The translations under genes were made by a program, and so were the position numbers. DNA of 63,860 nucleotides from a virus (lineage: Duplodnaviria; Caudoviricetes): the IMG/VR virus record IMGVR_UViG_3300042881_000493, positions 1 to 63,860 of that record, one strand, 5' to 3'. Positions 37,088 through 63,673 of this stretch are shown here, one piece after another (the first letter of the stretch is position 1; each line of letters begins with the position of its first letter). The notes beneath the pieces were generated by a model. The model worked only from the letters and a program-made list of their open reading frames with translations. It did no database searches and was not told the origin of the DNA.

Positions 37088-37105
37088 AAAAATTAAAAGT
37101 TTTCT
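37086..37105 (+). promoter_or_regulatory. 20-bp palindromic motif copy at the convergent late/early junction
   Basis: AGAAAAATTAAAAGTTTTCT spanning the gap between two stop codons. Confidence 0.6.
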
Positions 37106-37757
37106 ACGCCTTGTTAGTTCCTTCTATGTGGGCTGTTGAGTTATCCCAGCCTATGTGTTTAACGTAGCCATCTTCTTTATTGGAGATGGCTGCTCTAAAT
37201 CCTTTACGCATATAGTGCCTGCCTGCTGCGGCCTCGCCATCGACCATCTCATAGTCCTTTAACCTGCGTAGTCCGGGGTTCCAAGTAAACCCATGCCACC
37301 AATCAGCATACCCAAGTGACATCAATGGGTACTCCAGATCCCTTAGCTTCTCTATTGGATGGCCATTCGTATCGTTGTGCGCTCTTAACCAAACTGTGAT
37401 GATCCAAGGATTACTCTGCATTATTAGTGCAGATTCTTCTATGAAACCGGGTGCATAGAACTCCCAATCATCCTCAATGTGAAAGATGTAATCTGTTTCT
37501 ACGTGGAAGTAAGCCCAATCTATTGACTTGGTTTGGCCAATATTGTGCTCGTTTGCTATGACTGTGAACTGCGGCGGCTCATGAATCTTGATCTTGTCAA
37601 TCATTTCTTTGATAGTTATTGCCGCATTTATATACCCTGAGTCATCAATAATGATGAAGCTCTTGATGGGGAATGTATTGAACTCAAAGAAAGAACGCAG
37701 AGTTCTATCCAGAAGTTCAAACCTACCGCATGAAGTAAGTACACAAGTTACCTGCAT
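37104..37757 (-). CDS. Glycosyltransferase, GT-A fold (GT2-like)
   Basis: LTSCGRFELLDRTL, IIIDDS, YIFHIEDDW, FTWNPGLRR, VKHIG. Confidence 0.8.
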   Translation of the reverse strand: MQVTCVLTSCGRFELLDRTLRSFFEFNTFPIKSFIIIDDSGYINAAITIKEMIDKIKIHEPPQFTVIANEHNIGQTKSIDWAYFHVETDYIFHIEDDWEFYAPGFIEESALIMQSNPWIITVWLRAHNDTNGHPIEKLRDLEYPLMSLGYADWWHGFTWNPGLRRLKDYEMVDGEAAAGRHYMRKGFRAAISNKEDGYVKHIGWDNSTAHIEGTNKA

Positions 37758-38011
37758 TCCAATAGTCTTTCAATGGTGACTGCTAGAGCGTCTAACTCAT
37801 CCATCTTCTTGATAGCCCACATTCTTTTCTGGCCGTGCCAGCCCATGATTGGGCCTTGGTGACAGTCAGTACACAGGGCTACCACTGTGTATTGCTGATG
37901 CTGTTTAACATGGTGGGCGGCGCTAGGCGGAGGAGCATCACAGACAGAGCAAGGTAGTTCCTTGACTCTGCCTATGTGAAGCCTATGCTTGGCGGTTAGT
38001 TTATTGTTCAC
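37748..38011 (-). CDS. Ref/DUF968-like HNH-type zinc-binding nuclease
   Basis: LPCSVC...AHH...ALCTDCHQG...GWHG. Confidence 0.7.
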   Translation of the reverse strand: MNNKLTAKHRLHIGRVKELPCSVCDAPPPSAAHHVKQHQQYTVVALCTDCHQGPIMGWHGQKRMWAIKKMDELDALAVTIERLLECR

Positions 38012-38258
38012 CAGACACCCTGTGCTCTAGCATGGCATCTGCCATGATGTAAGAATCTTTCGCAATTAACTTTGACATGCTTTCTTCATCTTGAAACCCA
38101 TCGTCCTCAAAAGTAGTTACAGGATCATAGTTCTGAAGTATTGCTTGCATAGCATGGATAGCTATGTAGTCTCTAAGAGACATACCCATATCAAAGGGTG
38201 CGCCGTGGCCAGTGTTCGGTATAGGGAAGGCCATCTTCCCGCCATAAATTACAGTCAT
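38001..38258 (-). CDS. Conserved small phage protein
   Basis: AFP...GMSLRDYIAIHAMQ...SYIMADAML. Confidence 0.75.
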   Translation of the reverse strand: MTVIYGGKMAFPIPNTGHGAPFDMGMSLRDYIAIHAMQAILQNYDPVTTFEDDGFQDEESMSKLIAKDSYIMADAMLEHRVSGEQ

Positions 38259-38476
38259 TCTTTACTCCTTAATTTTGTTAATTCTGCTTTGGCATCAAGC
38301 CACGGCTGGATGTAGACCATCCTGCGGTCGTGATTCTTATTCCATTCGTTGATAGCAATAAATGGATTGCGAGCAGCCTCCCACTCCTCCATCCAAGTAA
38401 TTTCTTGCACGTTCATTGCACGTTGAGCATCGCTAACTAATTTCTCTAATTGTTCTATCTGGGTTTTGCGGTTCAT
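38255..38476 (-). CDS. Hypothetical protein
   Basis: Coupled overlaps in the leftward operon. Confidence 0.6.
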   Translation of the reverse strand: MNRKTQIEQLEKLVSDAQRAMNVQEITWMEEWEAARNPFIAINEWNKNHDRRMVYIQPWLDAKAELTKLRSKE

Positions 38477-38667
38477 CTTTCCATCCTTTGAAACATCATC
38501 TCTTCGGCTTGGTCGTAAGCCATGCGAGCGTTCTCTTGCATGTCCTCTCCGCCGGCTAAGCCCATAAGGACAAAGGCTGCAAAGAAGTCAAGCATCGTAA
38601 TCTGGTCAAGAGAGACAGGCTCCAACTTGACCAGACTCTTTACACCTTCAGGCTTTTTTCTTGCCAT
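38473..38667 (-). CDS. Small protein related to 38001-38258
   Basis: MLDFFAAFVLMGL...AYDQAEEMM; start taken at MARKKPEG. Confidence 0.6.
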   Translation of the reverse strand: MARKKPEGVKSLVKLEPVSLDQITMLDFFAAFVLMGLAGGEDMQENARMAYDQAEEMMFQRMER

Positions 38668-38968
38668 TTGATTTACCTTTTGTGTTCTGAGAAACAATCA
38701 TCTCTGAAAGTTTCTCGGCCAACAGATCGGCAACAGTGTCACCGTTGTACGCAAGGCTCGTAGCAAGTTCGTCCTCACCAATCACAGAGATCGCATCGCG
38801 GATACCTTTGTTGTATCCACCATTGAACTCGTCATCGCCTTCGACGATCATCGTAATAGCATCACGCACAAGGGCAGAAGCTTTGCGCTGACCAGCGGCT
38901 AGCTTTAGTTTGTCGTACACCTCCCGTTTAAGATGTACCGAGTAAGGTACTAAGCGGTTATCTTCCAT
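38648..38968 (-). CDS. Putative ribbon-helix-helix DNA-binding protein
   Basis: PYSVHLKREVYDKLK...ASALVRDAI. Confidence 0.55.
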   Translation of the reverse strand: MEDNRLVPYSVHLKREVYDKLKLAAGQRKASALVRDAITMIVEGDDEFNGGYNKGIRDAISVIGEDELATSLAYNGDTVADLLAEKLSEMIVSQNTKGKSNGKKKA

Positions 38969-39369
38969 GCTGAAAACTCCTGTGTTATGCCACGTAGCTT
39001 TTCTTGAGCACGGGCACTGTCTTTTATTTCTGTTCTTGAATTAATTTCCAAGTACTCTTTTAACCAACTGGTTGCTTCCTCTTCGTTAGCAATGAAGATG
39101 TGGCCACCGTCGTAGAGAAACTTGTGGAACTGAGAGTCTCTGCTGAGAATCCCAGCCGTTCGAACGCCATCGTTAGAGTGCTCTTGCTCTCTGTTCATTG
39201 GACGCTCTTCGTTATTAAGACGTACCATAACTACTTGGTACCTTGCACCTACGAAGTCACGCAGTATCTCCTCCGGCAATTCGTCTGGGTGTATTGAGAG
39301 TGTCAATACGAACCCAGTCTTATCTTGCTTGAGAGCTACCTTGACGCTTTCAAACTGGCTTGTTTTCAT
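38950..39369 (-). CDS. Conserved hypothetical phage protein
   Basis: QFESVKVALKQDKTG...LRDFVGARY...SRTEI. Confidence 0.65.
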   Translation of the reverse strand: MKTSQFESVKVALKQDKTGFVLTLSIHPDELPEEILRDFVGARYQVVMVRLNNEERPMNREQEHSNDGVRTAGILSRDSQFHKFLYDGGHIFIANEEEATSWLKEYLEINSRTEIKDSARAQEKLRGITQEFSAWKITA

Positions 39370-39389
39370 ACAAAGTTAATACTTTAGTA

Positions 39390-39674
39390 CTAAAAAGGTA
39401 TATCGCTGTCGTCAGCAGGAACCTCACGCTGTTGTGCAGGTTTCTTATAGTTGTTCACTTTGATACTGAAGAACTTTCCAAACTGTCCTTCTTTAATCCA
39501 AGCACCAAGCTTCATGTTGATAGAGTCAGCGCCCTCTTGACGGGCATCTTCCAACATCTCTTTGATGAGAGAGATGTCAACATCAATACTTCCAGTGTAG
39601 TCTGGTGAGTTGGGGTTGATCTTAGGCTGCTTAGCTTTGCCGAGCATTCCTGAGTTTGGGTATTTAGTAGCCAT
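39390..39674 (-). CDS. Putative single-stranded DNA-binding protein (DUF736-like)
   Basis: PDYTGSI, LGAW, acidic DDSDIPF C-terminal tail. Confidence 0.7.
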   Translation of the reverse strand: MATKYPNSGMLGKAKQPKINPNSPDYTGSIDVDISLIKEMLEDARQEGADSINMKLGAWIKEGQFGKFFSIKVNNYKKPAQQREVPADDSDIPF

Positions 39675-39676
39675 GA

Positions 39677-40363
39677 TTATCCTTTCAGTTCTTCTTTACG
39701 GGTTTTGAATGCGCCCATGAGCGCGGTATATCTCTCAACGTCTTCTAACTTCAGACGATCAAAGATAATTCTGTTGTTGGTAAACAGCTTCATGACTTCA
39801 GCTTCGTTATGAGTCTCTGCTAGACCCATCTTCGTGATGTCTACTACTGCTGTGATCCAAGATTCTGATGAGTCTCCGGGTTCCTTCTCTACGATGAGGT
39901 GCCAAGACTTATCGTCACGGCCTTCCATCTTCAGAGGAACTGGTGTCTTCTTAACTGGCTCAGGTTTAGGTTCTGGCTTCGGTGCTTCTACGGGAGGCGC
40001 TGAATCTACTGCGTCCCCTTCCACAAGCTCTAAAGCGGCCATCCAAAGGTAGCGACGTTGGTAGCTCAAAACTGCGCCCAAATTTTGGATAGGGTGTGCA
40101 CCTTTGAGATTAGCTTCGGCCATTGGACTGGTAATCACAATGACCGTGCCGTCATCTACATCTGTGATGCATAGTTGGGCATACTCAGTGCTAAACGTCA
40201 CGACACCGCACAGGCCAAGGTCGTTGAAGATGGTTTGAACATGAGGGATAAAGTCACTCAACTCAAAGTATGAATAGCCGGCAAACTTATTGAGACCAGA
40301 CTTCTTCATCTCTGTGGATTGAAGCTTGACCCTAGCTTGCATTAGCTTTTTATGGACTGACAT
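39677..40363 (-). CDS. erf: ERF-family single-strand annealing recombinase
   Basis: KSGLNKFAGYSYFELSDF, IQNLGAVLSYQRRYL. Confidence 0.85.
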   Translation of the reverse strand: MSVHKKLMQARVKLQSTEMKKSGLNKFAGYSYFELSDFIPHVQTIFNDLGLCGVVTFSTEYAQLCITDVDDGTVIVITSPMAEANLKGAHPIQNLGAVLSYQRRYLWMAALELVEGDAVDSAPPVEAPKPEPKPEPVKKTPVPLKMEGRDDKSWHLIVEKEPGDSSESWITAVVDITKMGLAETHNEAEVMKLFTNNRIIFDRLKLEDVERYTALMGAFKTRKEELKG

Positions 40364-40840
40364 TTACTTTCCTTTTTTAAAATATGTATTCATCACATCT
40401 TGGTAGTCAAAGAACTCTTTGAAACAGTCTTCGATAAACACTGTCTCCAAGCTTGTAGCTTCGACTTCACCGTTGTATGTGAATACTTTCTTTGGGACTC
40501 GTGTGTGTTTAAGTACAAAGTCCAAACCAGTTTGCGTAACTCTCCAGTAGCCGGAGTGTTTTTTCTTTTCGTCTTCTGTATTAGGTCTACGCTCAACAAG
40601 ATCCCACCAACGAAGTGTTGGCAGTTGATTGGTTCTAACAACCCACTGCGGGCCATTAACAGGAACGTTGACCCAGCCAGCTTCATCGGCCTTCGCAGTA
40701 CATAACCAGATCAAAGACTTGGCCATAGACTTGTTGATGTTACGTGCATAGACTTTGCCCCAACGATCACACACGGGGCAGTGGCCACCGTCACGATCTA
40801 TCGTATGTCTCCATGCTTTTCTGAGTTCTGCTTTTTCCAT
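40364..40840 (-). CDS. Hypothetical protein with CxxC and a winged-helix-like C-terminus
   Basis: CPVCDR; LRWWDLVE...SGYWRVTQTGLDF. Confidence 0.65.
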   Translation of the reverse strand: MEKAELRKAWRHTIDRDGGHCPVCDRWGKVYARNINKSMAKSLIWLCTAKADEAGWVNVPVNGPQWVVRTNQLPTLRWWDLVERRPNTEDEKKKHSGYWRVTQTGLDFVLKHTRVPKKVFTYNGEVEATSLETVFIEDCFKEFFDYQDVMNTYFKKGK

Positions 40841-40848
40841 GATTCACC

Positions 40849-41085
40849 TCATTTAATAGATGGACGACCGGGGCGCTTCTTTGGAGTACCGTCTTTCTTT
40901 ACGCCGTACTTGTATGTCTTAGTCGAAACAGTGACTGTGTTAGTCGGCATCTGCTGCTGAGAGATAGCAATCTCATGGTCGATGTAGTGGATCAATTGAT
41001 TGACTTGCTTGAACGGCATCTCAATCAATGCACGGATAATCATCTCAGCACTTTCTTGTGTGAGCGATAGGCTAACTGGTTTCAT
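40849..41085 (-). CDS. Small protein with an AT-hook-like tail
   Basis: YGVKKDGTPKKRPGRP; start taken at MKPVSL. Confidence 0.6.
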   Translation of the reverse strand: MKPVSLSLTQESAEMIIRALIEMPFKQVNQLIHYIDHEIAISQQQMPTNTVTVSTKTYKYGVKKDGTPKKRPGRPSIK

Positions 41086-41978
41086 AGAATTTCCTTTAGG
41101 TAGTTTTGGTATTGAGTGCAGAACGTTGATACTTGGCAGTAACTGCGGCATCGTGTTCTTTCTCCTTGTCTTACTTCGATTACAAACTTCTCGTTCTTCT
41201 TGGCCGTCTCTTCGGACTTCGCCAGTGCTTTCTCGGCTTCCTCAAGTGTCTCGTGAACACTCTTTGCCCTAACGTTCCCATCCTTCTTTAAAGCATAGGA
41301 AGTTTTCTTCTCCCACATTTCTTCGGGTGTGCAGTCTGGCATCTCGCCATCTGTCTCCATCTCAAACAGAGCAGTGCCGTGGTCGTAGATTCGTTTCGTG
41401 ATAAATGCTTCACGCTCTTCGAATGACCAGAGTGGAATATCAATCGTGGCCACTGGTGATTGTGGATAACCTTCTTTAGATGCGGCATCGCGGGCAGACC
41501 AGTCACGAATGATGGCAATGATCTGAAGCTTACCCACGGGTACCTTCTTAACCTTCTCCACCAACCATCCATAAATATTTAATTGGCGGTGCCAGTCATC
41601 CTTCTCATTCATCACTGCCCATGCGCCAGTAACTTTGTAATCACTGATCGTCATAGTCCCGTTAGGCTCTAGCTCTTGTAAGTCAATCGCACCAGAGATC
41701 TTCCATCCCTCAAACTCAATGTTCAATCTCTCTTCAACGATGTGATGTTTGTCTTTGCCGTGTTCCAAAATATTGTGAACAGCAGAACCAAAGAGTGACC
41801 ACACCATCTCACTTGCATCTTGCTCGATGTCATCCCAGTGTTTCTTTTTTAACTGGACGATGCGAGGTGAGTTGATGATCTCAGTTGCAGAGATGTGTGC
41901 CTTACCTTTGGAGTACGTTGGTCGATGGATTACATTGACAAATGTCTGAGGTAAGTTGAACTTGTTTGTGAACTTCAT
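41082..41978 (-). CDS. PD-(D/E)XK (Cas4/RecB-like) exonuclease
   Basis: GSAVHNILE, ISGAIDL, DYKVT, QLNIY, RCRSYCQVSTFCTQY. Confidence 0.85.
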   Translation of the reverse strand: MKFTNKFNLPQTFVNVIHRPTYSKGKAHISATEIINSPRIVQLKKKHWDDIEQDASEMVWSLFGSAVHNILEHGKDKHHIVEERLNIEFEGWKISGAIDLQELEPNGTMTISDYKVTGAWAVMNEKDDWHRQLNIYGWLVEKVKKVPVGKLQIIAIIRDWSARDAASKEGYPQSPVATIDIPLWSFEEREAFITKRIYDHGTALFEMETDGEMPDCTPEEMWEKKTSYALKKDGNVRAKSVHETLEEAEKALAKSEETAKKNEKFVIEVRQGERTRCRSYCQVSTFCTQYQNYLKEIL

Positions 41979-42074
41979 TATCACTCCTGTCTGTTAGTGT
42001 TTGAGTGATTGTACCTGCTACATTTTATTTTTGCAATAGGTAGGTTAAAATATTTTTATCAGGTAGGAGACACC

Positions 42075-42362
42075 ATGAGATACGCCAACAGAATCGACGC
42101 TAACCAGAACAAAATTGTGGACGCATTACGGGGCGCAGGAGCGGTCGTAAGGATCATCTCGCAGGGTGATGGCATCCCTGATCTTTTGGTGGCTTATAAC
42201 GGCTATACGGTGCTTATGGAGGTCAAAGACGGGGACAAAGTTCCTTCAGCAAGGAAGCTCACCGAGGCCGAGCAGAAATTCTTCGACGAGTGGACAGGTG
42301 GAATGCTAGTAGTAGTTAATTCTGTAGGGGAAGCACTTGAAATTCTTAAACGCTGCGAGTAA
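42075..42362 (+). CDS. VRR-NUC-like PD-(D/E)XK endonuclease (possible resolvase)
   Basis: AGGAG RBS; DANQ..IV.ALR, GIPDLLV, LMEVKDG, LTEAE. Confidence 0.8.
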   Translation: MRYANRIDANQNKIVDALRGAGAVVRIISQGDGIPDLLVAYNGYTVLMEVKDGDKVPSARKLTEAEQKFFDEWTGGMLVVVNSVGEALEILKRCE

Positions 42363-42422
42363 TATGGTGGCAATCCAGAGGGCTGGTTGTTTTGTGAGTT
42401 GCTTTTTTCCTTTGATTGTTTT

Positions 42423-42453
42423 AGTGGCCTCGTAACTGGGGCCACTTTTTTTT
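42423..42453 (+). terminator. Rho-independent terminator
   Basis: AGTGGCC...GGCCACT stem followed by a T run. Confidence 0.65.
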
Positions 42454-42622
42454 GGGGCAAATGGGGCAAAAGCGACACCGTGTCGTATTTGAGTTTGTTT
42501 CACATATATATATGTGTAACAACTTTCTTGCCCCAAATGCCTTGGAACCCGCATGGATACTGGAGTTTTTAGGGCAAATGGGGCAACAAAAAAAGTGTAC
42601 TTTGCCCTGTGGTTTTGCCCCA
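42454..42622. repeat. Iteron-like GGGCAA/TTGCCC repeats around an AT palindrome (candidate origin)
   Basis: GGGCAAATGGGGCAA at 42455 and 42572; inverted TTGCCC at 42528, 42602, 42615; CACATATATATATGTG at 42501-42516. Confidence 0.5.
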
Positions 42623-42626
42623 ACAG

Positions 42627-42653
42627 TTGCAGAAAAATTTTAATTTTTCTACG
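42627..42653 (-). promoter_or_regulatory. Palindromic motif copy; 27-bp exact inverted match to 55082-55108
   Basis: TTGCAGAAAAATTTTAATTTTTCTACG, 4 nt upstream of TTGACA. Confidence 0.7.
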
Positions 42654-42657
42654 GGAG

Positions 42658-42688
42658 TTGACAAGGCCGGAACAGTTGTGCTTATAAT
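42658..42688 (+). promoter_or_regulatory. Sigma70-type promoter
   Basis: TTGACA (42658) and TATAAT (42683); the 19-nt spacer is long. Confidence 0.6.
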
Positions 42689-42719
42689 CCGCCCGTTGCT
42701 GTCGGAGGCAATGAATTTG

Positions 42720-42821
42720 AGGCCGTTTACACATGCGTTCCGCTTTACTTAATGCTTTCTGTGGGGAGAGTCATTAAGCAAGGCTCCGACCGGACGCAGT
42801 TGTAAGCGGCCTTTTGTTTTT
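42720..42821 (+). ncRNA. c4/CI-like antisense RNA candidate
   Basis: Nested stems 42720-31/42801-12 and 42734-42/42791-98; junction CTCCGAC is complementary to GTCGGAG at 42701; U-tract follows. Confidence 0.5.
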
Positions 42822-43291: not shown

Positions 43292-43645
43292 ATGAACCTT
43301 TCCAATAAGTTGAAACGCAAGGCGGTGAAACTAGCTTGGGCGGTACGGGCTTCGTCCATGACGGATAACGAGGTAGCAGACGAACTGCGTAAGACGGCAG
43401 ACCCGTTCCTGTACACGGATGAGTGGAGGAAGCTTCGCCGAGAAGCTGCCGAGAGGTACGGGCTGATATGTTTTAAATGTGGGAGAGAGAACAGTCGCAA
43501 GTTCCCTATTAACATGGATCACATCAAACCACGTAAGTACTACCCTGAACTTGCTTTGGACATTGAGAACCTACAGCCGCTCTGCGGCCCTTGCAACAAG
43601 GCTAAAGGTAACAAAGTTACAGGCGTATTTAAAACGCAACATTAG
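43292..43645 (+). CDS. HNH endonuclease
   Basis: CFKCG...NMDHIKPR...NLQPLCGPCNKAKGN. Confidence 0.88.
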   Translation: MNLSNKLKRKAVKLAWAVRASSMTDNEVADELRKTADPFLYTDEWRKLRREAAERYGLICFKCGRENSRKFPINMDHIKPRKYYPELALDIENLQPLCGPCNKAKGNKVTGVFKTQH

Positions 43646-43741
43646 GGAAAGTCCCTAGCACCTTTTTACAACAGACGGCACAAACTGCTAGAACTGTGCA
43701 ATAATAATTGGAAACATAGCAGGTATAACAGGAGATAAGCA

Positions 43742-43942
43742 ATGAGGTATAACGAAGAGAATCTAACGCATGGTGGAGCAAGAAGAGGGGCGGGTCGCCC
43801 TGCTACATCGGTGGATAAGCGCAGGGTTGAGGTGCTTATGAACGAGGGTCTCTCTATGAGAGTTATTGCTGAGAGATTCGGGGTAACTGCTGCGGTTATC
43901 AAGAGAGTAATCAGGGAGATCAAGAATGGACAGACCAAGTAA
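43742..43942 (+). CDS. Small HTH DNA-binding protein
   Basis: GGARRGAGRP; GLSMRVIAERFGVTAAVIKR; AGGAG RBS. Confidence 0.75.
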   Translation: MRYNEENLTHGGARRGAGRPATSVDKRRVEVLMNEGLSMRVIAERFGVTAAVIKRVIREIKNGQTK

Positions 43943-44234
43943 AGAAACATGCCTGACGATGGCCAAGTACCAACATGGTTGCATGAATGAAGAGTTCATG
44001 TGGCGGTGGCTTTTTGAGTGGGCTACGTGGGAGGATGACATGAGGTGTCATGTGGAAGCTAAGAAACTTAAGCAAAGGAGATCAGTAATGACCAAAGAGC
44101 AGATAGAGAGATTCAACCAGACATTCCCAGAGTTCGACAACATCCTTGGCAGAACGATGGTGGCGTGGGTGGAAGCTGAGGTAACGCAGAAGTTAGTGGA
44201 GCAGTTCGATGAGATCTTTGAGGATACGAAATGA
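43926..44234 (+). CDS. Hypothetical protein
   Basis: Overlap-coupled in the rightward operon. Confidence 0.5.
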   Translation: MDRPSKETCLTMAKYQHGCMNEEFMWRWLFEWATWEDDMRCHVEAKKLKQRRSVMTKEQIERFNQTFPEFDNILGRTMVAWVEAEVTQKLVEQFDEIFEDTK

Positions 44235-44416
44235 CTTGGCCGTTCCCCAATTCAAACCCGCCTAATTCTTTGGAAGACCTAATGGAGCAAGGCGAGACCC
44301 GAATGTTAAACGGCAGAGAGATTATTCTTGCCCCCTACAAGGGTGCTAAGTACCGCATTGGGTGGGTATACAAAGATACGGGTCTACCGCCAACAGACGA
44401 GGACGCACCGTTATGA
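44231..44416 (+). CDS. Hypothetical protein (MTWPFP...EDAPL)
   Basis: ATGA overlaps at both ends. Confidence 0.6.
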   Translation: MTWPFPNSNPPNSLEDLMEQGETRMLNGREIILAPYKGAKYRIGWVYKDTGLPPTDEDAPL

Positions 44417-44694
44417 AACTTTTTAAGTATTCAGATTACAAAAATAAATCTCATGTCAAGCGTGAACCTTTATTTGAGATAACTGAGATTGCTGACAAAT
44501 TAAACATTGATGAAACAGATCTTAGAAACAAAATAAAAGGCCGACGGCGTGAAGGGTATCCATCCCCACCCAAACCAGCAATTGAACGAAGACTTTCCTA
44601 TGTTGGCACTAGGCCACAGTTGTACAAACTTTCAGAATTTAAGCAATGGCTTAAAGATTTAGAAAAGTTTAATCAAGAGGACGCACCAAGATGA
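44413..44694 (+). CDS. Putative HTH (excisionase-like) DNA-binding protein
   Basis: ITEIADKLNIDETDLR...PKP...YKLSEFKQW. Confidence 0.55.
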   Translation: MKLFKYSDYKNKSHVKREPLFEITEIADKLNIDETDLRNKIKGRRREGYPSPPKPAIERRLSYVGTRPQLYKLSEFKQWLKDLEKFNQEDAPR

Positions 44695-44936
44695 CCCGCG
44701 ATGAACTATTTGAAGTTGCTGAGAAGGTAGGGCTTGGCTTTATCAGACACGCCAGTGATAAGGACATTGAGAAGTTTGAAAGCTTTGCCCAACTGGTAGC
44801 AGAAGCTGAGCGCAATAAATACGAAGCCATCATCACCAACATGGCAAATTTGTTGGAAGCGCAACAGAAACGTGAAGGCGTTGCAGTTGAAATGATTGCA
44901 GCGGCTTTAGACATCCGAGCAAGGGGACAAGCATGA
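44691..44936 (+). CDS. Hypothetical protein
   Basis: FAQLVAEAER...IRARGQ phage small-gene pattern. Confidence 0.65.
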   Translation: MTRDELFEVAEKVGLGFIRHASDKDIEKFESFAQLVAEAERNKYEAIITNMANLLEAQQKREGVAVEMIAAALDIRARGQA

Positions 44937-45109
44937 AAGTCCGAAAGGTAAGAGGCCAAAACAAGGTAAGCAAGATTACTTTGACCGCCACCGAAGTTGC
45001 GTTAGCCAAGACGATGGGTATATCGCTTGAAAAATATGCACAGACAGCATTGTTTTTTATTGCAAAGCAACGCAGATGGAAGTGGTTCTTTAACAAGGAG
45101 AAAGCATGA
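44933..45109 (+). CDS. 58-aa protein resembling the scaffold C-terminus (not in ORF track)
   Basis: ATGA overlaps at both ends; SKITLTATEVALAKTMGISLEKYAQ. Confidence 0.7.
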   Translation: MKVRKVRGQNKVSKITLTATEVALAKTMGISLEKYAQTALFFIAKQRRWKWFFNKEKA

Positions 45110-45303
45110 AACCCCTAAGTGAACGCACGGCAAGGTTGACTATTGGAATGATGAGATCAATGGCTAATTGCAAGCCAATCAGTCCGTTCCATTTAGAAGC
45201 GTCTTATGAGATGGAGCAGTTGTTAAATGAGGTAATTGAATACAGGAGGAAAGATGAAAGCAAGAACAAACCGAAAAAGAATACTAGCAAAGCTGAGTCA
45301 TAA
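45106..45303 (+). CDS. Hypothetical protein
   Basis: AAGGAG RBS; overlap. Confidence 0.6.
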   Translation: MKPLSERTARLTIGMMRSMANCKPISPFHLEASYEMEQLLNEVIEYRRKDESKNKPKKNTSKAES

Positions 45304-45439
45304 CAAAAGAATCCCGTGGCTTATCACGCCTATCCTTGAGAGGGCAGCAAAGATCAAAGAACGTAACGACAGAATCAAAGCACAGGTAGATAAGATGTTT
45401 CCAAACCTGAAAGGAATTCCATGTCAGAACCTGAATTAA
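45254..45439 (+). CDS. Basic hypothetical protein
   Basis: AGGAGG RBS before ATG 45254. Confidence 0.5.
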   Translation: MKARTNRKRILAKLSHNKRIPWLITPILERAAKIKERNDRIKAQVDKMFPNLKGIPCQNLN

Positions 45440-45624
45440 ATATATGGGAGAAGGCGATGGGTTGGCGCAAGCGGCAGATGGTCAAGGCTCAGATCAATGA
45501 GGTGTCAGAGAAGATACGCAACGACACCATTGAAGAGGTGGCTAAGGAGATTGAGAAGATGACCATGTTTGGGCAGGACACCACATCAAGTTTTGCAGTT
45601 TACATAAGGGGCATGAAGCGATGA
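45421..45624 (+). CDS. Hypothetical protein
   Basis: IRNDTIEEVAKEIEK...SFAVYIRGMK. Confidence 0.65.
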   Translation: MSEPELNIWEKAMGWRKRQMVKAQINEVSEKIRNDTIEEVAKEIEKMTMFGQDTTSSFAVYIRGMKR

Positions 45625-45863
45625 TTAAGTATGAAGGTTACGACGAAGCCATCCTTGGCCCTGCATTTATCTGGCGCGACAGGCAACAGGTTCAAGTGCT
45701 TGTCTATGACGGAGAAAAGATACGGGAGATTCTTATGAAGCGCGACGGCATGGAGGCCGACGAAGCTCGTGAGTTTATTGAAGTCAACGTTGAAGGCGGT
45801 TACTTGGGGGTTACGACACCCGTACTGGTATGGCCTCAAGATTTTTGGGATGACGAAGAATGA
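45621..45863 (+). CDS. Conserved small phage protein
   Basis: GYDEAILG...EAREFIEVNVEGGYLG..TP. Confidence 0.7.
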   Translation: MIKYEGYDEAILGPAFIWRDRQQVQVLVYDGEKIREILMKRDGMEADEAREFIEVNVEGGYLGVTTPVLVWPQDFWDDEE

Positions 45864-46033
45864 ATGGATTTGTAGCGCAACAGTTGGTGCTTGGAAGCAA
45901 GCAGCCTTACCACCAACTCAAAGTATGTGACAAGTGTAAGGAAGAGAAGCCACCAGAGGGAGGCATTCAGATGTCACCCAACAAGTGGCATTGTGCAAAC
46001 TGCTGGACTAGAAGGGCAATAAGGAGATCGTAA
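45860..46033 (+). CDS. 57-aa zinc-finger-like protein (not in ORF track)
   Basis: CDKC...EGG...WHCANCW; coupled overlaps. Confidence 0.6.
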   Translation: MNGFVAQQLVLGSKQPYHQLKVCDKCKEEKPPEGGIQMSPNKWHCANCWTRRAIRRS

Positions 46034-46143
46034 TGGAAGAACTAAAAGCAAAACTGGAATGGGAAAAGAAATATAGCAAGATGTTGGAGGAGCTTATAGC
46101 CCACTACCAACGCGAGATTAACTATCTGAAAGCAAACACATGA
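46033..46143 (+). CDS. 36-aa hypothetical peptide
   Basis: AAGGAG RBS; TAATG and ATGA coupling. Confidence 0.5.
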   Translation: MEELKAKLEWEKKYSKMLEELIAHYQREINYLKANT

Positions 46144-46295
46144 ACGAAGCACGACAGGCGTTTGAGTCTTACATGGCCACCAAAGGCAGAAGCATTGCTG
46201 ATGCTTGGAATGGTAAGAGGTACACCAACATCAACATCAATACCAAGTGGTGTTACTTTTTAATAGGATGGACAATGAAAGGACAAGGCAAATGA
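46140..46295 (+). CDS. 51-aa hypothetical protein
   Basis: ATGA coupling at both ends. Confidence 0.5.
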   Translation: MNEARQAFESYMATKGRSIADAWNGKRYTNININTKWCYFLIGWTMKGQGK

Positions 46296-47050
46296 AACTT
46301 AATCAACTCACAATAGATGGCGGTACACAGTCACGGGTCAAGATTATTCAAGAGGCGGTGGATGAATACGCAGAGTCGCTTGCAGGTGGTGCGAGGTTTC
46401 CTCCGGTGCTTGCGTACTACGACGGCATAAATTATTACTTGACTGACGGATACCACCGGTACTTTGCCCACCAGAAGGCCGGCTTAAAGGACATCGAGGT
46501 AACAGTTGTTAACGGCACATTGAGGGATGCGATCCTTAGATCCTTTAGTGTGAATGCAGAGAACGGAAGACATCGTAGCAACGAGGACAAGCGCAACGCA
46601 GTTCAGGCCATGCTTGATGACTTTGAGTGGCAGTTTTGGAACAACACCGAGATAGCCAAGGCGTGTCGTGTGTCTGTGACTTTGGTCAATTTAGTTCGCG
46701 GTGGTGTTAAGCCAGAGGTCGTGAAGGTTACTCGCAATGGTAAAGTGTTTGAGCGTAAGGCTAAGTATGAGAAGCCCGAAGAAGAACCCAAGCATGACAC
46801 TTCAGGAGATGTGATTAAGTCATTGGCAGATGAGAACGACAAGCTGAAGGATCGTTTGGCGGTGGCAGTTTATGCGGCTGACGAGTCAGAGAAGAAGTTA
46901 GTTGAGAACACTATCGCGCAGTTGCGTGAGGATATTCGTTTGTTAGAGATCGAATTGAAGTCTACCCGTATCAGTCGGGACACATTGCTTAATGAAAATG
47001 CGGCAATGAAAAAGCAAATTGCAGCGATGCAAAGACAATTAAAGAAGTGA
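46292..47050 (+). CDS. ParB/Srx N-terminal domain protein with a coiled-coil tail
   Basis: GGTQSR, FPPV, YYLTDGYHRY.A, NTEIAKACRVS. Confidence 0.8.
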   Translation: MKLNQLTIDGGTQSRVKIIQEAVDEYAESLAGGARFPPVLAYYDGINYYLTDGYHRYFAHQKAGLKDIEVTVVNGTLRDAILRSFSVNAENGRHRSNEDKRNAVQAMLDDFEWQFWNNTEIAKACRVSVTLVNLVRGGVKPEVVKVTRNGKVFERKAKYEKPEEEPKHDTSGDVIKSLADENDKLKDRLAVAVYAADESEKKLVENTIAQLREDIRLLEIELKSTRISRDTLLNENAAMKKQIAAMQRQLKK

Positions 47051-47098
47051 GTAAAGCCTAAGCCCACAGGCTAATGTGTGGGTAGCTGGAGAAACAAT

Positions 47099-48574
47099 AT
47101 GGGATTAGAGTTACGGCCTTATCAGAAGGCTACGCTAGAGGCATTGCGTAAGGGGTTTGCATCGGGCAAAAAAAGCCTGATGCTCTACGCCCCCACGGGT
47201 GCAGGTAAAACGGAGATGGCTATCGCTTTGCTCGAAGCCACAAGCCAGAAGGGTAATCGGGCGGCAATGATCTTAGACAGGATCATTCTGTGCGATCAGA
47301 CGAGTCAACGGCTAGACAAATACAACATAGATCATGGAGTCTTACAGTCAGGTCACTGGCGTGATCTCCCGTCTGAGAAGATACAGATCTGTTCGGCTCA
47401 GACATTGGAGAGACGCGAGGAGTTTCCCAATCTAAACCTACTCATCATTGACGAAGCCCACCAGACCCGTGCGGCAACAGTCGAGTTCATCAAGAACAAT
47501 CCAGCGATCAGAGTCATAGGTCTGAGTGCTACACCTTTTACCAAGGGGTTAGCCAAGGTCTATGAGGATGTGGTCTCTACTGTCACGACACAAGAGTTGG
47601 TAGATGACAAGGTGCTTGTCCCGCTAAAAGTATTTATTGCCAAAGAAATAAATATGGAAGGGGCTAAGAAGGTGGCGGGCGAATGGTCTCCTATCGAGAC
47701 TACTAAACGGGGTATGCAGATCACAGGCGACATCGTGGTGGAGTGGGAGAAAAAGACCAATGAGATATTTGGTAAGCCGGCAAAGACGATTGTGTTCTGC
47801 TCCGGTGTAGCTCATGGTGCTGACTTGGCGCAGAAGTTTGGTGATCGTGGCTATAACTTTATCAATATCAGTTATCGGGATGACGATCAGTATAAGAAGG
47901 ATGTGATCGAGGAGTTTAGTAAGCCAAACACAGAGATTCAAGGGTTGATTGCTACTGACATCCTGACTAAAGGATTTGATGTGTCCGATGTGATGATTGG
48001 GGTATCGGCTAGGCCGTTCTCTAAGTCCTTGTCCTCCCACATTCAGCAGATGGGACGGGTCATGCGCGGTCATGAAGGGAAAGAGTTTGCCGTGTGGTTG
48101 GATCATTCGGGTAACTATCTTAGATTCCGCGAGGAGTGGGATGAGGTGTTTGGTGGTGGTGTTAGTGAACTAGATGACGGGGCGGAGAAGACTAAGAAAG
48201 AACCAAGCGAGAAGGAAAAAGAATTAGCTAAGTGTCCTGCGTGTGGGGCTTTGTGGCCTTTGAATTCAGATATGTGCAAGTCATGTGGACATATACGGCA
48301 GAGAAAGACCAAGGTCGAGGCGGTAGCGGGTGAGATGGAGGAGTTGACTGGCACTATGGCTCGCGAGAGTAAGCAGTTGTGGTGGTCGATGATGAACTGG
48401 TACATGAAATACAACGGATGGTCGAAGGGACGGGCGGCTAATGTGTACCGAGAGAAGTTCGGAGTCTGGCCTCGCGGGTTGGAGGACAATCCGGTCATGC
48501 CGGATGCAAATGTTTCTAAGTTTGTGCAGGATGGGATCAATAGATACGTTAAGTCAATCAGGAGGATGCGTTAA
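47099..48574 (+). CDS. Superfamily 2 DNA helicase with a C-terminal zinc ribbon
   Basis: APTGAGKT, IIDEAH, GLSATP, LTKGFD, QQMGRVMR, CPAC...CKSC. Confidence 0.92.
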   Translation: MGLELRPYQKATLEALRKGFASGKKSLMLYAPTGAGKTEMAIALLEATSQKGNRAAMILDRIILCDQTSQRLDKYNIDHGVLQSGHWRDLPSEKIQICSAQTLERREEFPNLNLLIIDEAHQTRAATVEFIKNNPAIRVIGLSATPFTKGLAKVYEDVVSTVTTQELVDDKVLVPLKVFIAKEINMEGAKKVAGEWSPIETTKRGMQITGDIVVEWEKKTNEIFGKPAKTIVFCSGVAHGADLAQKFGDRGYNFINISYRDDDQYKKDVIEEFSKPNTEIQGLIATDILTKGFDVSDVMIGVSARPFSKSLSSHIQQMGRVMRGHEGKEFAVWLDHSGNYLRFREEWDEVFGGGVSELDDGAEKTKKEPSEKEKELAKCPACGALWPLNSDMCKSCGHIRQRKTKVEAVAGEMEELTGTMARESKQLWWSMMNWYMKYNGWSKGRAANVYREKFGVWPRGLEDNPVMPDANVSKFVQDGINRYVKSIRRMR

Positions 48575-49398
48575 TGGAATTCATTTCATTTTGCAGGGCG
48601 CACGGGGTATTGATCGACATCCCTCCACCGATAGGAGTCTGGAGAAGATACCCAACGGATGACCACCCAAAGAAAAGAAACGGGGCGGTCAAGTTCATGG
48701 GAGATCACGGGTTTGTGCAGAACCATGCGGTCGATACCGAGGTATCTGTGTGGCAACCAGAGACACCGATCAAGATTGACAGAAAGAAAATAGCCAAGGA
48801 TCTTGCGGTGGTCGAGGCTAAACGCAGGGCAGATCAGGAAGATGCAGTCAAGCGGGCTGCTTTTATCTTGAGTCAGGCGGGTATTGGTAAGCATCCGTAT
48901 CTAGACAAGAAGGGTTTTGTAGGCGCAGAAGATATGGTGTGGGGGCATGAGGGTAAGAAAACAATGGTCATTCCCATGCGGGTGGATGGACACTTAGTCG
49001 GATGTCAGCTAATCGAGGAGGATGGATCTAAGAAGTTTCTGTATGGTCAGCGCACCAGTAATGCGGAGTTGGTCATGGATAACAAGGGGATTCATATACT
49101 TTGTGAAGGTTACGCAACGGGTCTGTCTATCCAAGAGGCTTTTAGAAAGATGAGCCGGAGGTACACGATCCATGTTTGCTTCAGCGCGGGGAACATGAAG
49201 AAGGTGGCGCAGGGCTTACCGGATGGACTCATAGTTGCGGACAACGATAAAAGCAAGACGGGGGAGCGGGTTGCTAAGGAGATCGGATGGCCTTACTGGA
49301 TGAGCGATGTCGAGGGAGAGGACGCTAACGACACTCACCAAAGGATAGGCGTTCTCCGGTTTGGATTAAGCCTAGTACGCTCATTGAACTTGGTCTGA
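48574..49398 (+). CDS. TOPRIM-domain primase (TraC-like)
   Basis: HPYLDKKG, GCQLI..DGSKKFL.G, CEGYATGLS, VCFSAGN, ADND, DAND. Confidence 0.85.
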   Translation: MEFISFCRAHGVLIDIPPPIGVWRRYPTDDHPKKRNGAVKFMGDHGFVQNHAVDTEVSVWQPETPIKIDRKKIAKDLAVVEAKRRADQEDAVKRAAFILSQAGIGKHPYLDKKGFVGAEDMVWGHEGKKTMVIPMRVDGHLVGCQLIEEDGSKKFLYGQRTSNAELVMDNKGIHILCEGYATGLSIQEAFRKMSRRYTIHVCFSAGNMKKVAQGLPDGLIVADNDKSKTGERVAKEIGWPYWMSDVEGEDANDTHQRIGVLRFGLSLVRSLNLV

Positions 49399-54360: not shown

Positions 54361-55086
54361 ATGAAAACACTCACACGCAAGCAGATCAAGGAAGGTCTAG
54401 AACAAGTCCCAATGGCAGACATACTAGGCGTTTCCCACAAGGAGATCACCCCGAAAATGCAAACGTTCGCAAGGGAGATAGCGAAGGGGTCAAAGAAGGT
54501 TGACGCTTACCGCAAGGCTTACAAGGCGGATGCCAAACCCTCTAGCCTCGCCAAAGACCCTTACACGCTAGCCAATGATCCAAGAGTCATCCAAGAGGTC
54601 GAGGCTTACAGGCTGGCTTTAGAGTCGGCTAAACATCGCACCCCTGTTGCTTTGAGGGAGTTGGTAATTCAATCCCTTGTCCAAGTATTGATTGACCCAA
54701 AGGCTAAACAGTCAACCAAAGTGGCGAGCGCGAAGGTACTTGGCACAGTGACAGAGGTTTCCGCATTCACTGAGAGGCGCGAGGTTCGAACCATCTCATC
54801 GAGCGCAGACACCAAGGCGCAGATCATGGCGCAGTTGCGGGAGATGCTCAACGGGCGCGCGGAAGATGCGACGATCATAGAGGCCGACACCCTTTTGCGC
54901 GAGCTATCGGGCGAGACCCACCCACTCCCGACCCCCCCGAACGGCGTTGCGGAGTCCCAAGATCCTATACATACTATTCCACACGAACCAACCCAACAAG
55001 ATTCGGTTTTGGAAGACCCCCCACCCCCAGAAAAAGTTTCTGGAGCAGCACCCACCCATCCTTTTAGGGGAGACACCCCGGCGTAG
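54361..55086 (+). CDS. terS: Terminase small subunit (putative)
   Basis: ITPKMQTFAREIA...DAYRKAY HTH-like; upstream of terL; AAGGAG RBS. Confidence 0.65.
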   Translation: MKTLTRKQIKEGLEQVPMADILGVSHKEITPKMQTFAREIAKGSKKVDAYRKAYKADAKPSSLAKDPYTLANDPRVIQEVEAYRLALESAKHRTPVALRELVIQSLVQVLIDPKAKQSTKVASAKVLGTVTEVSAFTERREVRTISSSADTKAQIMAQLREMLNGRAEDATIIEADTLLRELSGETHPLPTPPNGVAESQDPIHTIPHEPTQQDSVLEDPPPPEKVSGAAPTHPFRGDTPA

Positions 55087-55139
55087 AAAAATTAAAATTT
55101 TTCTGCAAAATAATTTTCTAGAAAAATTAAAATTTTTAT
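55082..55139 (+). promoter_or_regulatory. Tandem pair of the palindromic motif upstream of the LexA-like gene
   Basis: AGAAAAATTAAAATTTTTCT at 55085 and AGAAAAATTAAAATTTTTAT at 55120. Confidence 0.75.
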
Positions 55140-56933: not shown

Positions 56934-56940
56934 GGCTCTC

Positions 56941-60650: not shown

Positions 60651-60660
60651 GGAGTAGTTT

Positions 60661-61587
60661 ATGGATAATTTTAATAAAGAAGAATTTGCATTTCCTGATG
60701 AAGTTGACAAAAAAACAACAGTTCAGGAAGATGACGGCGGTGTAGATGTAGAGATTGAAACCTCTTCAAAAGAAACAAAATCTACTCGGTCTAATGACGA
60801 TGACGAGATTGAAAAGTATGATGAAAAGGTAAAGAAGCGTATTGCTGATTTACAGTCTGGCTTTCACAGTGAACGCCGCCGTGCTGAGGAAGCTGCCCGC
60901 GAGCGGGAAGAGGCTATTGCTTTTGCTCAATCTGTGGCCGAAGAGAATAAAAAGCTCAAAGGTTCATTATCTGAGGGGCAGTCAGCATTACTAGAACAAG
61001 CTAAAAAAGTAGTATCTAATGAGGTTGATGAAGCAAAACGACGCTACAAAAGTGCGTATGAATCGGGTGATTCTGACGCTTTAGTTGAGGCTCAGGAGTT
61101 ATTAACTTCTGCCAAAATTAAAATGGAGCGAGTAAATAATTTTAAACCCGCTTTACAAAAAGAAGAAAATGAAGTAAAAATCGCACCTAGGGAAGTCCCT
61201 CGCCAGCCACAAGTAGATCCTAAAGCTGCTAGATGGCAAAGCGAGAATTCTTGGTTTGGCAGTGATGATGAGATGACCAGCTTTGCTCTGGGCTTACATA
61301 CTAAGCTCATTAAGAATGGTATCGACCCTAACTCCGACGAATATTACACGCGACTTAATTCGCGTATTCGCCAAGTGTTTCCAGAGAACTTCGATCTGGA
61401 TAACAACGAATCGGAAACTCAAACGAGTTCCGCTCCTCGTCAAAAATCGAATGTCGTCGCACCTGCGACACGGAGCACCTCATCTTCCAAGATCCGGCTC
61501 ACTCCATTTCAGGTAACGATGGCTAAAAAGTTCGGCGTATCCCACGAACTGATGGCTCAAAAAATTGCAGAATTAAGAAAAGGTTAA
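60661..61587 (+). CDS. Capsid scaffolding protein (putative)
   Basis: Acidic N-terminus, coiled coil, WQSENSWFG, C-terminal KIRLTPFQVTMAKKFGVS. Confidence 0.7.
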   Translation: MDNFNKEEFAFPDEVDKKTTVQEDDGGVDVEIETSSKETKSTRSNDDDEIEKYDEKVKKRIADLQSGFHSERRRAEEAAREREEAIAFAQSVAEENKKLKGSLSEGQSALLEQAKKVVSNEVDEAKRRYKSAYESGDSDALVEAQELLTSAKIKMERVNNFKPALQKEENEVKIAPREVPRQPQVDPKAARWQSENSWFGSDDEMTSFALGLHTKLIKNGIDPNSDEYYTRLNSRIRQVFPENFDLDNNESETQTSSAPRQKSNVVAPATRSTSSSKIRLTPFQVTMAKKFGVSHELMAQKIAELRKG

Positions 61588-61591
61588 TGAT

Positions 61592-62050: not shown

Positions 62051-62069
62051 ATTTTTTTGGAGACTTAAA

Positions 62070-62675: not shown

Positions 62676-62686
62676 GGAGCTAAATC

Positions 62687-63598
62687 ATGGCTATTTCACG
62701 CGCACAACTGCTCAAAGAATTACTCCCCGGCTTGAACGCTTTGTTCGGTCTTGAGTACGCTAAATACGGCGAAGAGCACAAAGAAATCTACGAAACAGAA
62801 TCATCTGAGCGTAGCTTTGAAGAAGAGACAAAGCTGTCTGGCTTCGGTCAAGCACCTGTCAAAAACGAGGGTTCTGCCATCGCTTATGACAATGCACAGG
62901 AAGCATTTACTGCACGTTATACACACGAAACCATTGCGATGGGCTTTGCCATCACAGAGGAAGCTGTGGAAGATAACTTGTACGACAGCCTGTCTTCACG
63001 TTATACCAAGGCTTTGGCCCGTGGTATGGCTTACACCAAGCAAGTTAAAGCCGCTTTTGTGTTGAACAACGCATTTTCTGGCTCTGGCGTGACCTACGGT
63101 GACGGCGTTACTTTGTGTAACACTGCCCACCCATTGGTCTCTGGTGGTACTAACAGTAACACTCCATCTACCGCTTCTGACTTGAATGAAACATCGTTGG
63201 AAAACGCTGTTATTCAAATCGCTGCTTGGACAGATGAGCGTAGCTTGTTGATCGCCGCTAAGCCTAAGAAGTTGGTGATTCCACCTGCTCTGCAATTCGT
63301 TGCTACTCGTTTGCTTGAAACCGAACTCCGTGTTTCTACAGCCGACAATGACATCAACGCTTTGAAGAACAATGGTTCTATCCCTGAAGGCTATTGCATT
63401 AACCACTACTTGACAGACACCAATGCTTGGTTCCTGTTGACTGATGTGCCTAATGGTTTAAAGCACTTCATCCGCACTCCCATGTCTACTGGCATGGACG
63501 GTGACTTTGACACAGGTAACGTTCGTTACAAAGCCCGTGAGCGTTACAGCTTCGGCGTGTCAGATCCATTGGGTATCTTCGGTTCACCCGGAGCCTAA
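62687..63598 (+). CDS. Major capsid protein (Mu gpT-like family)
   Basis: MAISRAQLLKELLPGLNALFG, KPKKLVIPPAL, NHYLTDTNAWF, DFDTGNVRYKARERYSFG. Confidence 0.92.
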   Translation: MAISRAQLLKELLPGLNALFGLEYAKYGEEHKEIYETESSERSFEEETKLSGFGQAPVKNEGSAIAYDNAQEAFTARYTHETIAMGFAITEEAVEDNLYDSLSSRYTKALARGMAYTKQVKAAFVLNNAFSGSGVTYGDGVTLCNTAHPLVSGGTNSNTPSTASDLNETSLENAVIQIAAWTDERSLLIAAKPKKLVIPPALQFVATRLLETELRVSTADNDINALKNNGSIPEGYCINHYLTDTNAWFLLTDVPNGLKHFIRTPMSTGMDGDFDTGNVRYKARERYSFGVSDPLGIFGSPGA

Positions 63599-63614
63599 TA
63601 GGTCTAAAAAAAGA

Positions 63615-63636: not shown

Positions 63637-63637
63637 C

Positions 63638-63666: not shown

Positions 63667-63673
63667 CATGTTA

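Follow-up and report, generated by a model that had tools for sequence, protein, structure and literature searches.

We analysed 63,860 nucleotides of a tailed phage (Caudoviricetes), namely positions 1 to 63,860 of the IMG/VR record IMGVR_UViG_3300042881_000493, and this whole stretch is called the window below. It holds a genome of 63.9 kb that CheckV rates as 100% complete. Our subject is a small open reading frame (ORF) of this genome, whose product of 58 amino acids (aa) resembles the C-terminal tail of a scaffold-like protein of the same phage. The features on which the comparison is based are the following:

44933..45109, plus strand: small ORF, encoding a conserved basic protein of 58 aa
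44966..45052, plus strand: helix-loop-helix module of the small protein (residues 12-40) shared with the scaffold-like protein, delimited by hhalign and by a profile of the scaffold tails
60661..61587, plus strand: gene of a scaffold-like protein of 308 aa (phrog_28737, 'unknown function', E 1.8e-40)
61483..61569, plus strand: module in the C-terminal tail of the scaffold-like protein (residues 275-303), from hhalign and AlphaFold2
62687..63598, plus strand: gene of the major capsid protein (Phage_capsid_4, E 2.1e-12; Mu-like_gpT, E 1.2e-5; phrog_371, major head protein)

The initial annotation of this DNA gave the small ORF a 58-aa product and ATGA coupling at both ends. The translation agrees and both junctions read ATGA, the ATG of the small ORF overlapping the TGA of an 81-aa ORF upstream and its own TGA overlapping the ATG of a 65-aa ORF downstream. 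The small ORF encodes a real protein, which is under purifying selection. Among 5.8 billion clustered proteins there were 49 relatives, which measure 55-77 aa and have 63-95% identity; none of them has a Pfam domain, and the public sets label these relatives 'hypothetical protein'; the ESM Atlas contains the exact 58-aa sequence. When the profile of the family was run with HMMER against 1.84 billion representatives, 44 proteins were found at E<=0.001, 40 of which had at most 98 aa. A relative is also encoded in 86 stretches of IMG/VR, from which we retained 80 loci. Among 75 copies of the gene the median proportion of synonymous differences (pS) was 0.72, which is near saturation, and that of nonsynonymous differences (pN) was 0.26; the median dN/dS was 0.23 over the 1193 pairs with an unsaturated pS. 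PHROGs had no family for the small ORF or for either of its neighbours, and a blastn search of positions 44000-47000 against phage records gave no match.

Regarding the resemblance to the scaffold-like protein, it had first been noticed as an ungapped alignment with 13 of 25 residues identical. BLASTP gave the same alignment, residues 13-37 of the small protein against residues 276-300 of the 308-aa protein (nucleotides 61486-61560), with an E of 7e-5 for this single comparison. An all-against-all look at a proteome could yield such a value by chance, and therefore the likeness was examined with profiles. The 36-member profile of the small-protein family, run against the 1060 six-frame ORFs of at least 30 aa in the window, had the scaffold-like protein as its sole non-self match (E 0.0084, 12.3 bits; the next ORF had an E of 3.5). 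The initial annotation had suggested a profile search with the scaffold tail, and in the same 1060 ORFs this search retrieved the small ORF with 28.3 bits (E 8.3e-8), the scaffold-like protein of the window itself scoring 28.7 bits (E 5.9e-8) and the third-best ORF having an E of 0.47. The tail profile was built from 10 scaffold tails of about 38 residues from other genomes, the row of the window and a near-identical row being omitted, and it aligned residues 14-38 of the small protein. The scaffold-like proteins had been fetched from 20 contigs with the small gene; they were present in 12, the other 8 being fragments, and the protein of G010, which ends before the tail, was dropped from the 12.

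In agreement with these searches, hhalign aligned residues 12-40 of the small family to residues 275-303 of 10 scaffold-like proteins with a probability of 96% and an E of 4.4e-9. With tblastn at E<=10, the 58 aa matched 3 of 50,697 phage records (MinM2, Pag-Yong1 and Pra-JY27) at an E of 0.8, and in each of the three the match fell on the final 23 codons of the gene for the scaffold homologue; with this E the evidence therefore lies in the position of the matches and not in their score. Judged by these four independent tests, the match between the small protein and the scaffold tail is more than chance, and the likeness that the initial annotation had pointed out turned out to be real and specific at the level of profiles (family profile, hhalign and tail profile). 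At this same level, the small protein and the scaffold tail share a homologous module of about 29 residues. The family profile also reached a 134-aa C-terminal fragment of a scaffold-like protein (P0089) among the 1.84 billion representatives, with an E of 5.2e-4 and 36 bits. In this fragment the module lies at the end (residues 108-131), and a second matched stretch, seen by eye, stands where other scaffolds have the helical domain. Two repeat proteins from the library search, P0074 and P0077, were judged to be spurious multi-repeat matches.

The 308-aa protein can reasonably be taken as the scaffold, because of its position between the portal and capsid genes, the predicted architecture of its tail and its co-divergence with the capsid protein (Spearman rho 0.92, p 2e-4, in 10 genomes). 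It has homologues in HTVC027P/023P, CRP-901/902, Pag-Yong1, MinM2 and other phages, which GenBank labels 'hypothetical' or 'kinesin-like'. The nearest named cluster of the ESM Atlas, which serves as a lead only, has PF09306 (Phage-scaffold) in 14% of its members, with a score of 0.87. In the AlphaFold2 prediction of the last 119 aa, a disordered linker connects a helical domain to a two-helix hairpin at the terminus, with helices at residues 93-101 and 106-118 of the fragment and a mean predicted local distance difference test (pLDDT) of 81 for residues 91-110 and of 71 for residues 111-119. The net charge of the tails is +4 to +6.

The initial annotation had seen the locus in the frame of P22-like phages, which does not fit this phage. 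Its capsid protein is of the Mu gpT-like / Phage_capsid_4 type, and its relatives are HTVC023P-type podophages, the Roseobacter phages CRP-901/902 and Planktothrix/Synechococcus phages. The capsid protein is very conserved: in public data all 8000 scored candidates matched at E<=1e-10, and the best 120 listed were 94-100% identical. The small protein is far more variable than the capsid protein, with 38-82% identity between the compared genomes. The first 60 residues of the capsid protein have a net charge of -4 in the window and of -3 to -5 in 10 genomes.

The small protein itself was modelled by AlphaFold2 with the 36-member alignment as a compact chain (mean pLDDT 91, predicted template modelling score 0.69) with strands at residues 2-5 and 12-16 and helices at residues 19-28, 32-46 and 50-54. 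In this monomer strand 12-16 pairs with strand 2-5 of the same chain, forming an intramolecular hairpin, and the predicted two-helix hairpin (helices 19-28 and 32-46) would match the two-helix architecture of the tail. Its net charge is +11, and that of the relatives ranges from +8 to +13. Invariant in the 36-member alignment are V3, R4, K5, V6, R7, L17, E21, E33, L40, I43, A44, K45, R47, W49 and W51. The C-terminus, residues 39-58 (45047-45106), is rich in Trp and Arg ('...IAKQRRWKWFF...') and includes the invariant I43, A44, K45, R47, W49 and W51; it might be part of the fold core or contact a membrane or a nucleic acid. Sub-threshold Pfam matches to Imm17 were found for this C-terminus in 10 of the 36 members (best E 0.012).

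The module is not confined to these two proteins. We ran the tail profile on 18,271 six-frame ORFs from 102 loci and obtained 104 matches at E<1, which were 75 small ORFs (69 recognised by pattern and 6 by eye), 21 scaffolds or scaffold fragments, and 8 proteins of a third family. The latter are early proteins of 224-250 aa with an N-terminal winged helix-turn-helix (wHTH), MarR/IclR-like at sub-threshold level; after it comes the module, present once or twice, and the C-terminal domain is DUF6378 or DUF3310. Three of them, in related viral contigs, are located as follows:

L021:3051-3800: third-family protein
L045:6035-6778: third-family protein
L075:1258-1929: third-family protein

One third-family protein matches the tail end of phrog_28737 (positions 304-334 of 341, E 8e-4). 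The window itself has no wHTH-DUF6378/DUF3310 gene with the module. A module profile made from 42-residue segments gave, among 8000 candidates of longer proteins, 7208 matches at E<=1, and the best 120 of these were the wHTH-DUF family, scaffold-like proteins of 300-347 aa, and fragments; beyond these 120 there may be further contexts of the module. A protein of 130 aa (P0092, no PHROG family) carries the module at residues 25-64, between a basic N-terminus, which we take by eye to be an AT-hook-like stretch, and a coiled coil. Of 1273 records with a DUF3310 match, a very small sample of 3 DUF3310 proteins from cultured, unrelated phages was checked and none had the module. Since the module occurs in three protein contexts in one group of phages, and in 0 of 3 DUF3310 proteins of cultured phages, it looks like a unit shuffled within the gene pool of this group. 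This would be a clean case of module shuffling, and three contexts in one gene pool would point to one common partner.

In our preferred reading, to which we give a probability of roughly 40%, the small protein is a ligand of the capsid protein and uses the site of the scaffold tail. By analogy with P22, 80alpha and others, the scaffold tail would bind the capsid protein; that the small protein does so as the tail would, and what such binding achieves, we infer. The reading draws on the fit of the profiles, on the restriction of the module to a group with a very conserved capsid protein, on the complementarity of the charges and on a weak pass in complex prediction. The charges are complementary indeed, the tails being at +4 to +6 and the small proteins at +8 to +13, against -3 to -5 for the capsid N-termini. 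The restriction to one group, together with the fact that other helix-turn-helix (HTH) domains do not score, suggests a group-specific partner. The module would give the small protein an affinity for the capsid surface that the scaffold tail uses, which we guess to be the acidic N-terminal region. The small protein could in this way take up the scaffold sites of capsid subunits, even in advance of the scaffold, or be carried along into the procapsid. As possible purposes of a free tail mimic, the initial annotation had proposed a delay of the phage's own head assembly, a poisoning of the capsids of co-infecting relatives or a decoy for a host defence sensor.

A prediction of the complex with the capsid protein, also suggested in the initial annotation, was returned with the verdict 'weak support'. 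The ipSAE scores were 0.37, 0.31 and 0.34 (median 0.34) and the best of 3 controls had 0.01; the runs agreed in at least 97% of the contacts and the pLDDT of the partner was at least 76. The alignments held 16 sequences for the capsid protein and 36 for the small protein. Of 80 solved complexes, 58 attain the mark of the tool, as do 2 of 110 mismatched pairs; the passes with a score of at most 0.60 comprise only 7 of the 80 solved complexes and both of the mismatched pairs. The tool warns that a weak pass is wrong in the majority of cases unless the pair was likely beforehand, and that these counts hold only roughly for alignments supplied by the user, as here.

If the binding at the scaffold site is true, the small protein would be a phage-encoded counterpart of the competing scaffolds of satellites such as CpmB. 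It would also offer a handle on the timing of head assembly or on cargo loading in HTVC023P-type podophages, which are abundant in aquatic metagenomes.

Nevertheless, a number of observations weigh against the binding of the capsid protein. Firstly, the controls of the complex prediction were not charge-matched, and a very basic peptide set against an acidic protein could inflate the score. Secondly, the module is present in the wHTH-DUF6378/DUF3310 proteins and so is not a scaffold-only signature; its occurrence in 8 early proteins means that by itself it is no mark of capsid assembly. Thirdly, the core 'A-x-K-L-G-I-S-x-E' also matches designed helical-repeat proteins, with about 4 bits per repeat, and therefore part of the likeness is generic helix-loop-helix chemistry. 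Moreover, the family-invariant residues are mostly outside the module (V3-R7, L40, I43-K45, R47, W49 and W51). Finally, the small gene is located in a replication block among variable small genes, outside the head module. It lies 15.7 kb from the scaffold-like gene; the genes of phage scaffolding proteins are in the head module beside the capsid gene. Scaffolding proteins are also long, largely helical and diverge with the capsid protein, a description that the 58-aa protein does not fit. The block and its first gene are:

43292..49398, plus strand: replication/early gene block with the small ORF, defined by gene content
43292-43645, plus strand: HNH endonuclease gene, the first of the block

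The history of the gene belongs to the same side of the balance. The divergence of the small protein follows that of the capsid protein only weakly, with a rho of 0.39 (p 0.037), and that of the scaffold with a rho of 0.35 (p 0.058). Between the genomes G006 and G012 the identity is 82% for the small proteins, but 37% for the capsid proteins and 25% for the scaffolds, and the tail motif, which is kept in 11 of 12 genomes, has diverged and is lost from the scaffold of G006. When the small-protein modules were scored against the tails of 12 genomes (12x12), the diagonal mean was 37.25 and the off-diagonal one 34.67, that is, there was no genome-specific match, although the test is weak because the first 60 residues of the capsid protein are near-identical in 8 of 10 genomes and little co-variation is therefore to be expected. 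G006 is the one informative exception to this near-invariance. The small protein of the window agrees with the tail of its own genome at 13 of 29 positions and with that of G003 at 16, a better fit. In addition, G009 (L028/L086/L098) is 93% identical to the window in the scaffold, 94% in the capsid protein and 60% in the small protein, which is mosaicism. The small gene is thus inherited independently of the head genes.

The best-placed alternative, which we regard as possible but doubtful, would make the small protein an early regulator of transcription or translation that binds nucleic acids, or a DNA-coating factor, with a phosphate-binding core like that of ribbon-helix-helix (RHH) or HTH proteins. 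The likeness to the scaffold tail would in this case be an old shared module or convergence, with no common partner. The charge speaks for such a role, +11 in 58 aa and +8 to +13 among the relatives, and so do the invariant basic residues R4, K5, R7, K45 and R47, which lie outside the shared module. The operon does as well, since the starts in its block are those of the HNH endonuclease (43292), an HTH protein (43742), a ParB-like protein (46292), a DNA helicase (47078) and a primase (48574); it is also from this operon content that we take the small protein to be probably early. Elsewhere the module stands beside a wHTH and, in P0092, beside the stretch that we read as AT-hook-like, and the small gene is shuffled like other early genes.

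The predicted order of strand, helix, turn and helix is a further point in favour of a nucleic-acid binder. The G-x-S/T/N turn is a hallmark of RHH proteins, and the small protein is like the RHH repressors (CopG, Arc, Omega and the N-domains of antitoxins) in its strand, helix, G-x-S turn and helix, its small size, its basic charge and its early phage setting. However, it remains below the family thresholds, its helix A is shorter, and it has an extra N-terminal strand, which in the model is paired within the chain in an intramolecular hairpin and does not await a dimer partner. Foldseek against PDB gave 26 rows at E<=10 and none at E<=0.001, the weak top rows being CopG (E 4.2, TMt 0.53), Arc, NikA and an RHH antitoxin. 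In a structure search of 48,161 chains that was independent of Foldseek, 207 chains had Z>=2 and none had Z>=5. The top chain was the N-domain of trigger factor, which is not a DNA binder (Z 3.7, root-mean-square deviation 2.2 A over 54 residues), and the RHH chains came after it with Z of 2.5-3.3, among them SegB, PutA-RHH, TraM, Omega and SvtR at 2.7-3.3. Many RHH DNA binders are therefore among the best structural rows, weak as these are, but the scores are in the range of chance and we assign no fold.

Regarding Pfam, all matches of the 36 members were below the cut-off: Mu-like_Pro in 5, RHH_3 in 3, Sigma70_r3 in 2 (E 0.0069 and 0.014) and RelB in 1. The last three families favour a nucleic-acid binder; however, no DNA- or RNA-binding family reached its threshold, every Pfam E being at least 0.0069, and the classical HTH families (HTH_3, HTH_17, MarR and others) had no match at E<=1 in the 36 members, Sigma70_r3 aside. 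Furthermore, the closest profile relatives in the library of 1.84 billion were scaffold tails and not the millions of HTH proteins. If the small protein does bind DNA or RNA, it would be an ordinary small early regulator, and the hairpin would be common to scaffold tails and such regulators.

It is less probable still, and on the whole unlikely, that the module acts as a protein-protein adaptor to a different partner, peculiar to the group or to its host, which the small protein titrates or recruits. The candidates would be the scaffold tail itself (a hetero-association in which the small protein acts as a dominant-negative 'poison subunit'), the GroES-like protein of the phage, or a host factor. 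Early small phage proteins commonly target host proteins, a tendency that favours this explanation, as do the three protein contexts of the module in one phage group, outside of which it was not seen, and the GroES-like gene directly upstream of the scaffold gene. Nevertheless, the weak pass in complex prediction was obtained with the capsid protein, and no conserved neighbour gene points to another partner.

Equally unlikely, and partly overlapping with the nucleic-acid explanation, is a convergence on a generic helix, G-[IV]-S turn and helix, without ancestry or functional link to the scaffold. The shared residues L17, V22, G29, I30 and Y35, and the capping pairs T18/E21 and S31/E33, could all be structural; the scaffold of the window reached only 12.3 bits with the family profile, and designed helical repeats such as KLALKLGISVEELLK match that profile. 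In sequence searches of PDB, the family profile retrieved only designed repeats and weak uS13 rows, and the scaffold C-terminus only a designed PPR protein and one weak row. The initial annotation had named a generic HTH pattern as part of what would undo its proposal, and this objection holds in part, as the designed repeats indicate. It fails in that ordinary HTH domains do not score: those among the 18,271 ORFs of these phages do not, and the wHTH of L021 has -1.2 bits with the tail profile. The designed repeats have about 4 bits each, against 28.3 bits for the small ORF with the tail profile and 36 bits for P0089 with the family profile. Moreover, the match continues upstream into K-[IV]-x-L-[TS] and downstream into E-x-Y-A, spanning 29 columns in total, and the only matches in the phage database were scaffold tails.

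The least probable of the explanations, and a rather remote one, is that the module is a portable procapsid-targeting tag, with which non-structural proteins would enter the procapsid and accompany the DNA into the next host. The hairpin, which would anchor the scaffold to the conserved capsid protein, would then have been copied onto the polycationic 58-aa protein and, in 1-2 copies, onto the wHTH-DUF6378/DUF3310 proteins of the relatives. The C-terminal tail of the HK97 protease, the targeting sequence of the T4 internal proteins and the cargo peptides of encapsulins are short, transferable peptides by which unrelated proteins are brought into a shell of the HK97 fold, and one module on the scaffold, on a small basic protein and on the wHTH-DUF6378/DUF3310 proteins is reminiscent of them. 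In contrast to these signals, the small gene and the wHTH-DUF genes are in the replication block. If true, the tag would be a natural counterpart to the targeting of T4 internal proteins or to the cargo peptides of encapsulins, found from sequence.

Several known systems can be set beside the capsid-binding reading. In P22, the HTH of the scaffold is reported to be essential for coat binding (10.1101/2022.12.13.520362). As in P22 gp8, the scaffold-like protein of the window is predicted to end in a basic two-helix hairpin on a flexible tether, its gene is near the capsid gene, and the small protein carries a hairpin that by profile is homologous to this tail. There are differences, however. 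The capsid protein is Mu gpT-like here and no sequence relation to gp8 was seen, none having been looked for. The small protein stands on its own, is extended by a beta-hairpin and by a C-terminal helix rich in Trp, and has its gene in the replication block.

In the satellite SaPI1, CpmB and the 80alpha scaffold are described as competitors for the same site of the capsid protein (PMC5644958). However, CpmB is satellite-encoded and redirects capsid size, whereas the small gene is in the complete genome of the phage itself; the record has its own terminase, portal, scaffold-like and capsid genes, which sets it apart from a satellite. The shared module is also central in the small protein and not C-terminal, and its binding is, so far, a weak in-silico pass. 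We found no phage-encoded free-standing paralogue of a scaffold tail described in the literature, supplementary tables of HTVC023P-type phages aside, and CpmB was the closest case. The word 'scaffold' has 0 occurrences in PMC9599517 and PMC12753301, which deal with HTVC023P-type phages.

A third comparison is with gpI/gpZ of Mu (PF10123, Mu-like_Pro). In 5 of the 36 members residues 8-37 align to positions 301-330 of the 330 of this profile, but with 12.4-13.5 bits (E 0.054-0.11) these five matches stay below the cut-off of 25.2, the proteins of the window and the scaffold tails do not match it, and no protease domain was found. Actually, neither PF10123 nor PF05396 (Phage_T7_Capsid) had any match in the window at E<=10, and Pfam on the 12 scaffold C-termini gave no Mu-like_Pro and nothing meaningful. 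As a lead only, the ESM Atlas placed the small protein near a 39-aa cluster with the T7 capsid-assembly family (PF05396) in 44% of its members (score 0.85, 60 of 256 features).

The ORFs coupled to the small gene are:

44691..44936, plus strand: 81-aa ORF upstream, its stop sharing ATGA with the start of the small ORF; without a family in PHROGs or Pfam
45106..45303, plus strand: 65-aa ORF downstream, its start sharing ATGA with the stop of the small ORF; without a family in PHROGs or Pfam

A relative of the 81-aa ORF was located at most 1.2 kb from the small ORF in 11 of 75 loci, 6 times upstream and 5 times downstream, and the 65-aa neighbour was retained in only 6 of the 75. The ATGA overlap between the stop of the small ORF and the start of the next gene, whatever gene follows, was present in 57 of the 75 loci. 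A conserved neighbour as a clue to the partner was considered and rejected, the largest cluster having 8 of 47 immediately downstream ORFs and 14 of 49 immediately upstream ORFs.

Some further observations concern the head genes. Between the scaffold-like and capsid genes there are two genes without an assigned function, at 61592-62050 (152 aa, phrog_36003) and at 61986-62675 (202-229 aa, no family). A scan of 52 window proteins with PHROGs and/or Pfam, which did not extend to the genes at 1-37,000, revealed no head-maturation protease. The GroES-like co-chaperonin gene is at 60234-60650 (phrog_3188, E 2.6e-6), and GroES is listed as a core gene of HTVC023P-type phages (PMC9599517). A GtrB-like glycosyltransferase gene stands at 59308-60093, between the portal and head genes.

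As for the rest of the genome, a minus-strand block at 37104-42734 includes an Erf-like annealing protein (39680-40363), an exonuclease (41085-41984) and a weak match to a single-stranded DNA-binding protein. The plus-strand structural block of 54361-63860 leaves the window at its end and resumes at its start (1-37087), and because of this continuity the record appears to be a permuted complete genome. The structural block includes ORFs of 1309 and 1770 aa.

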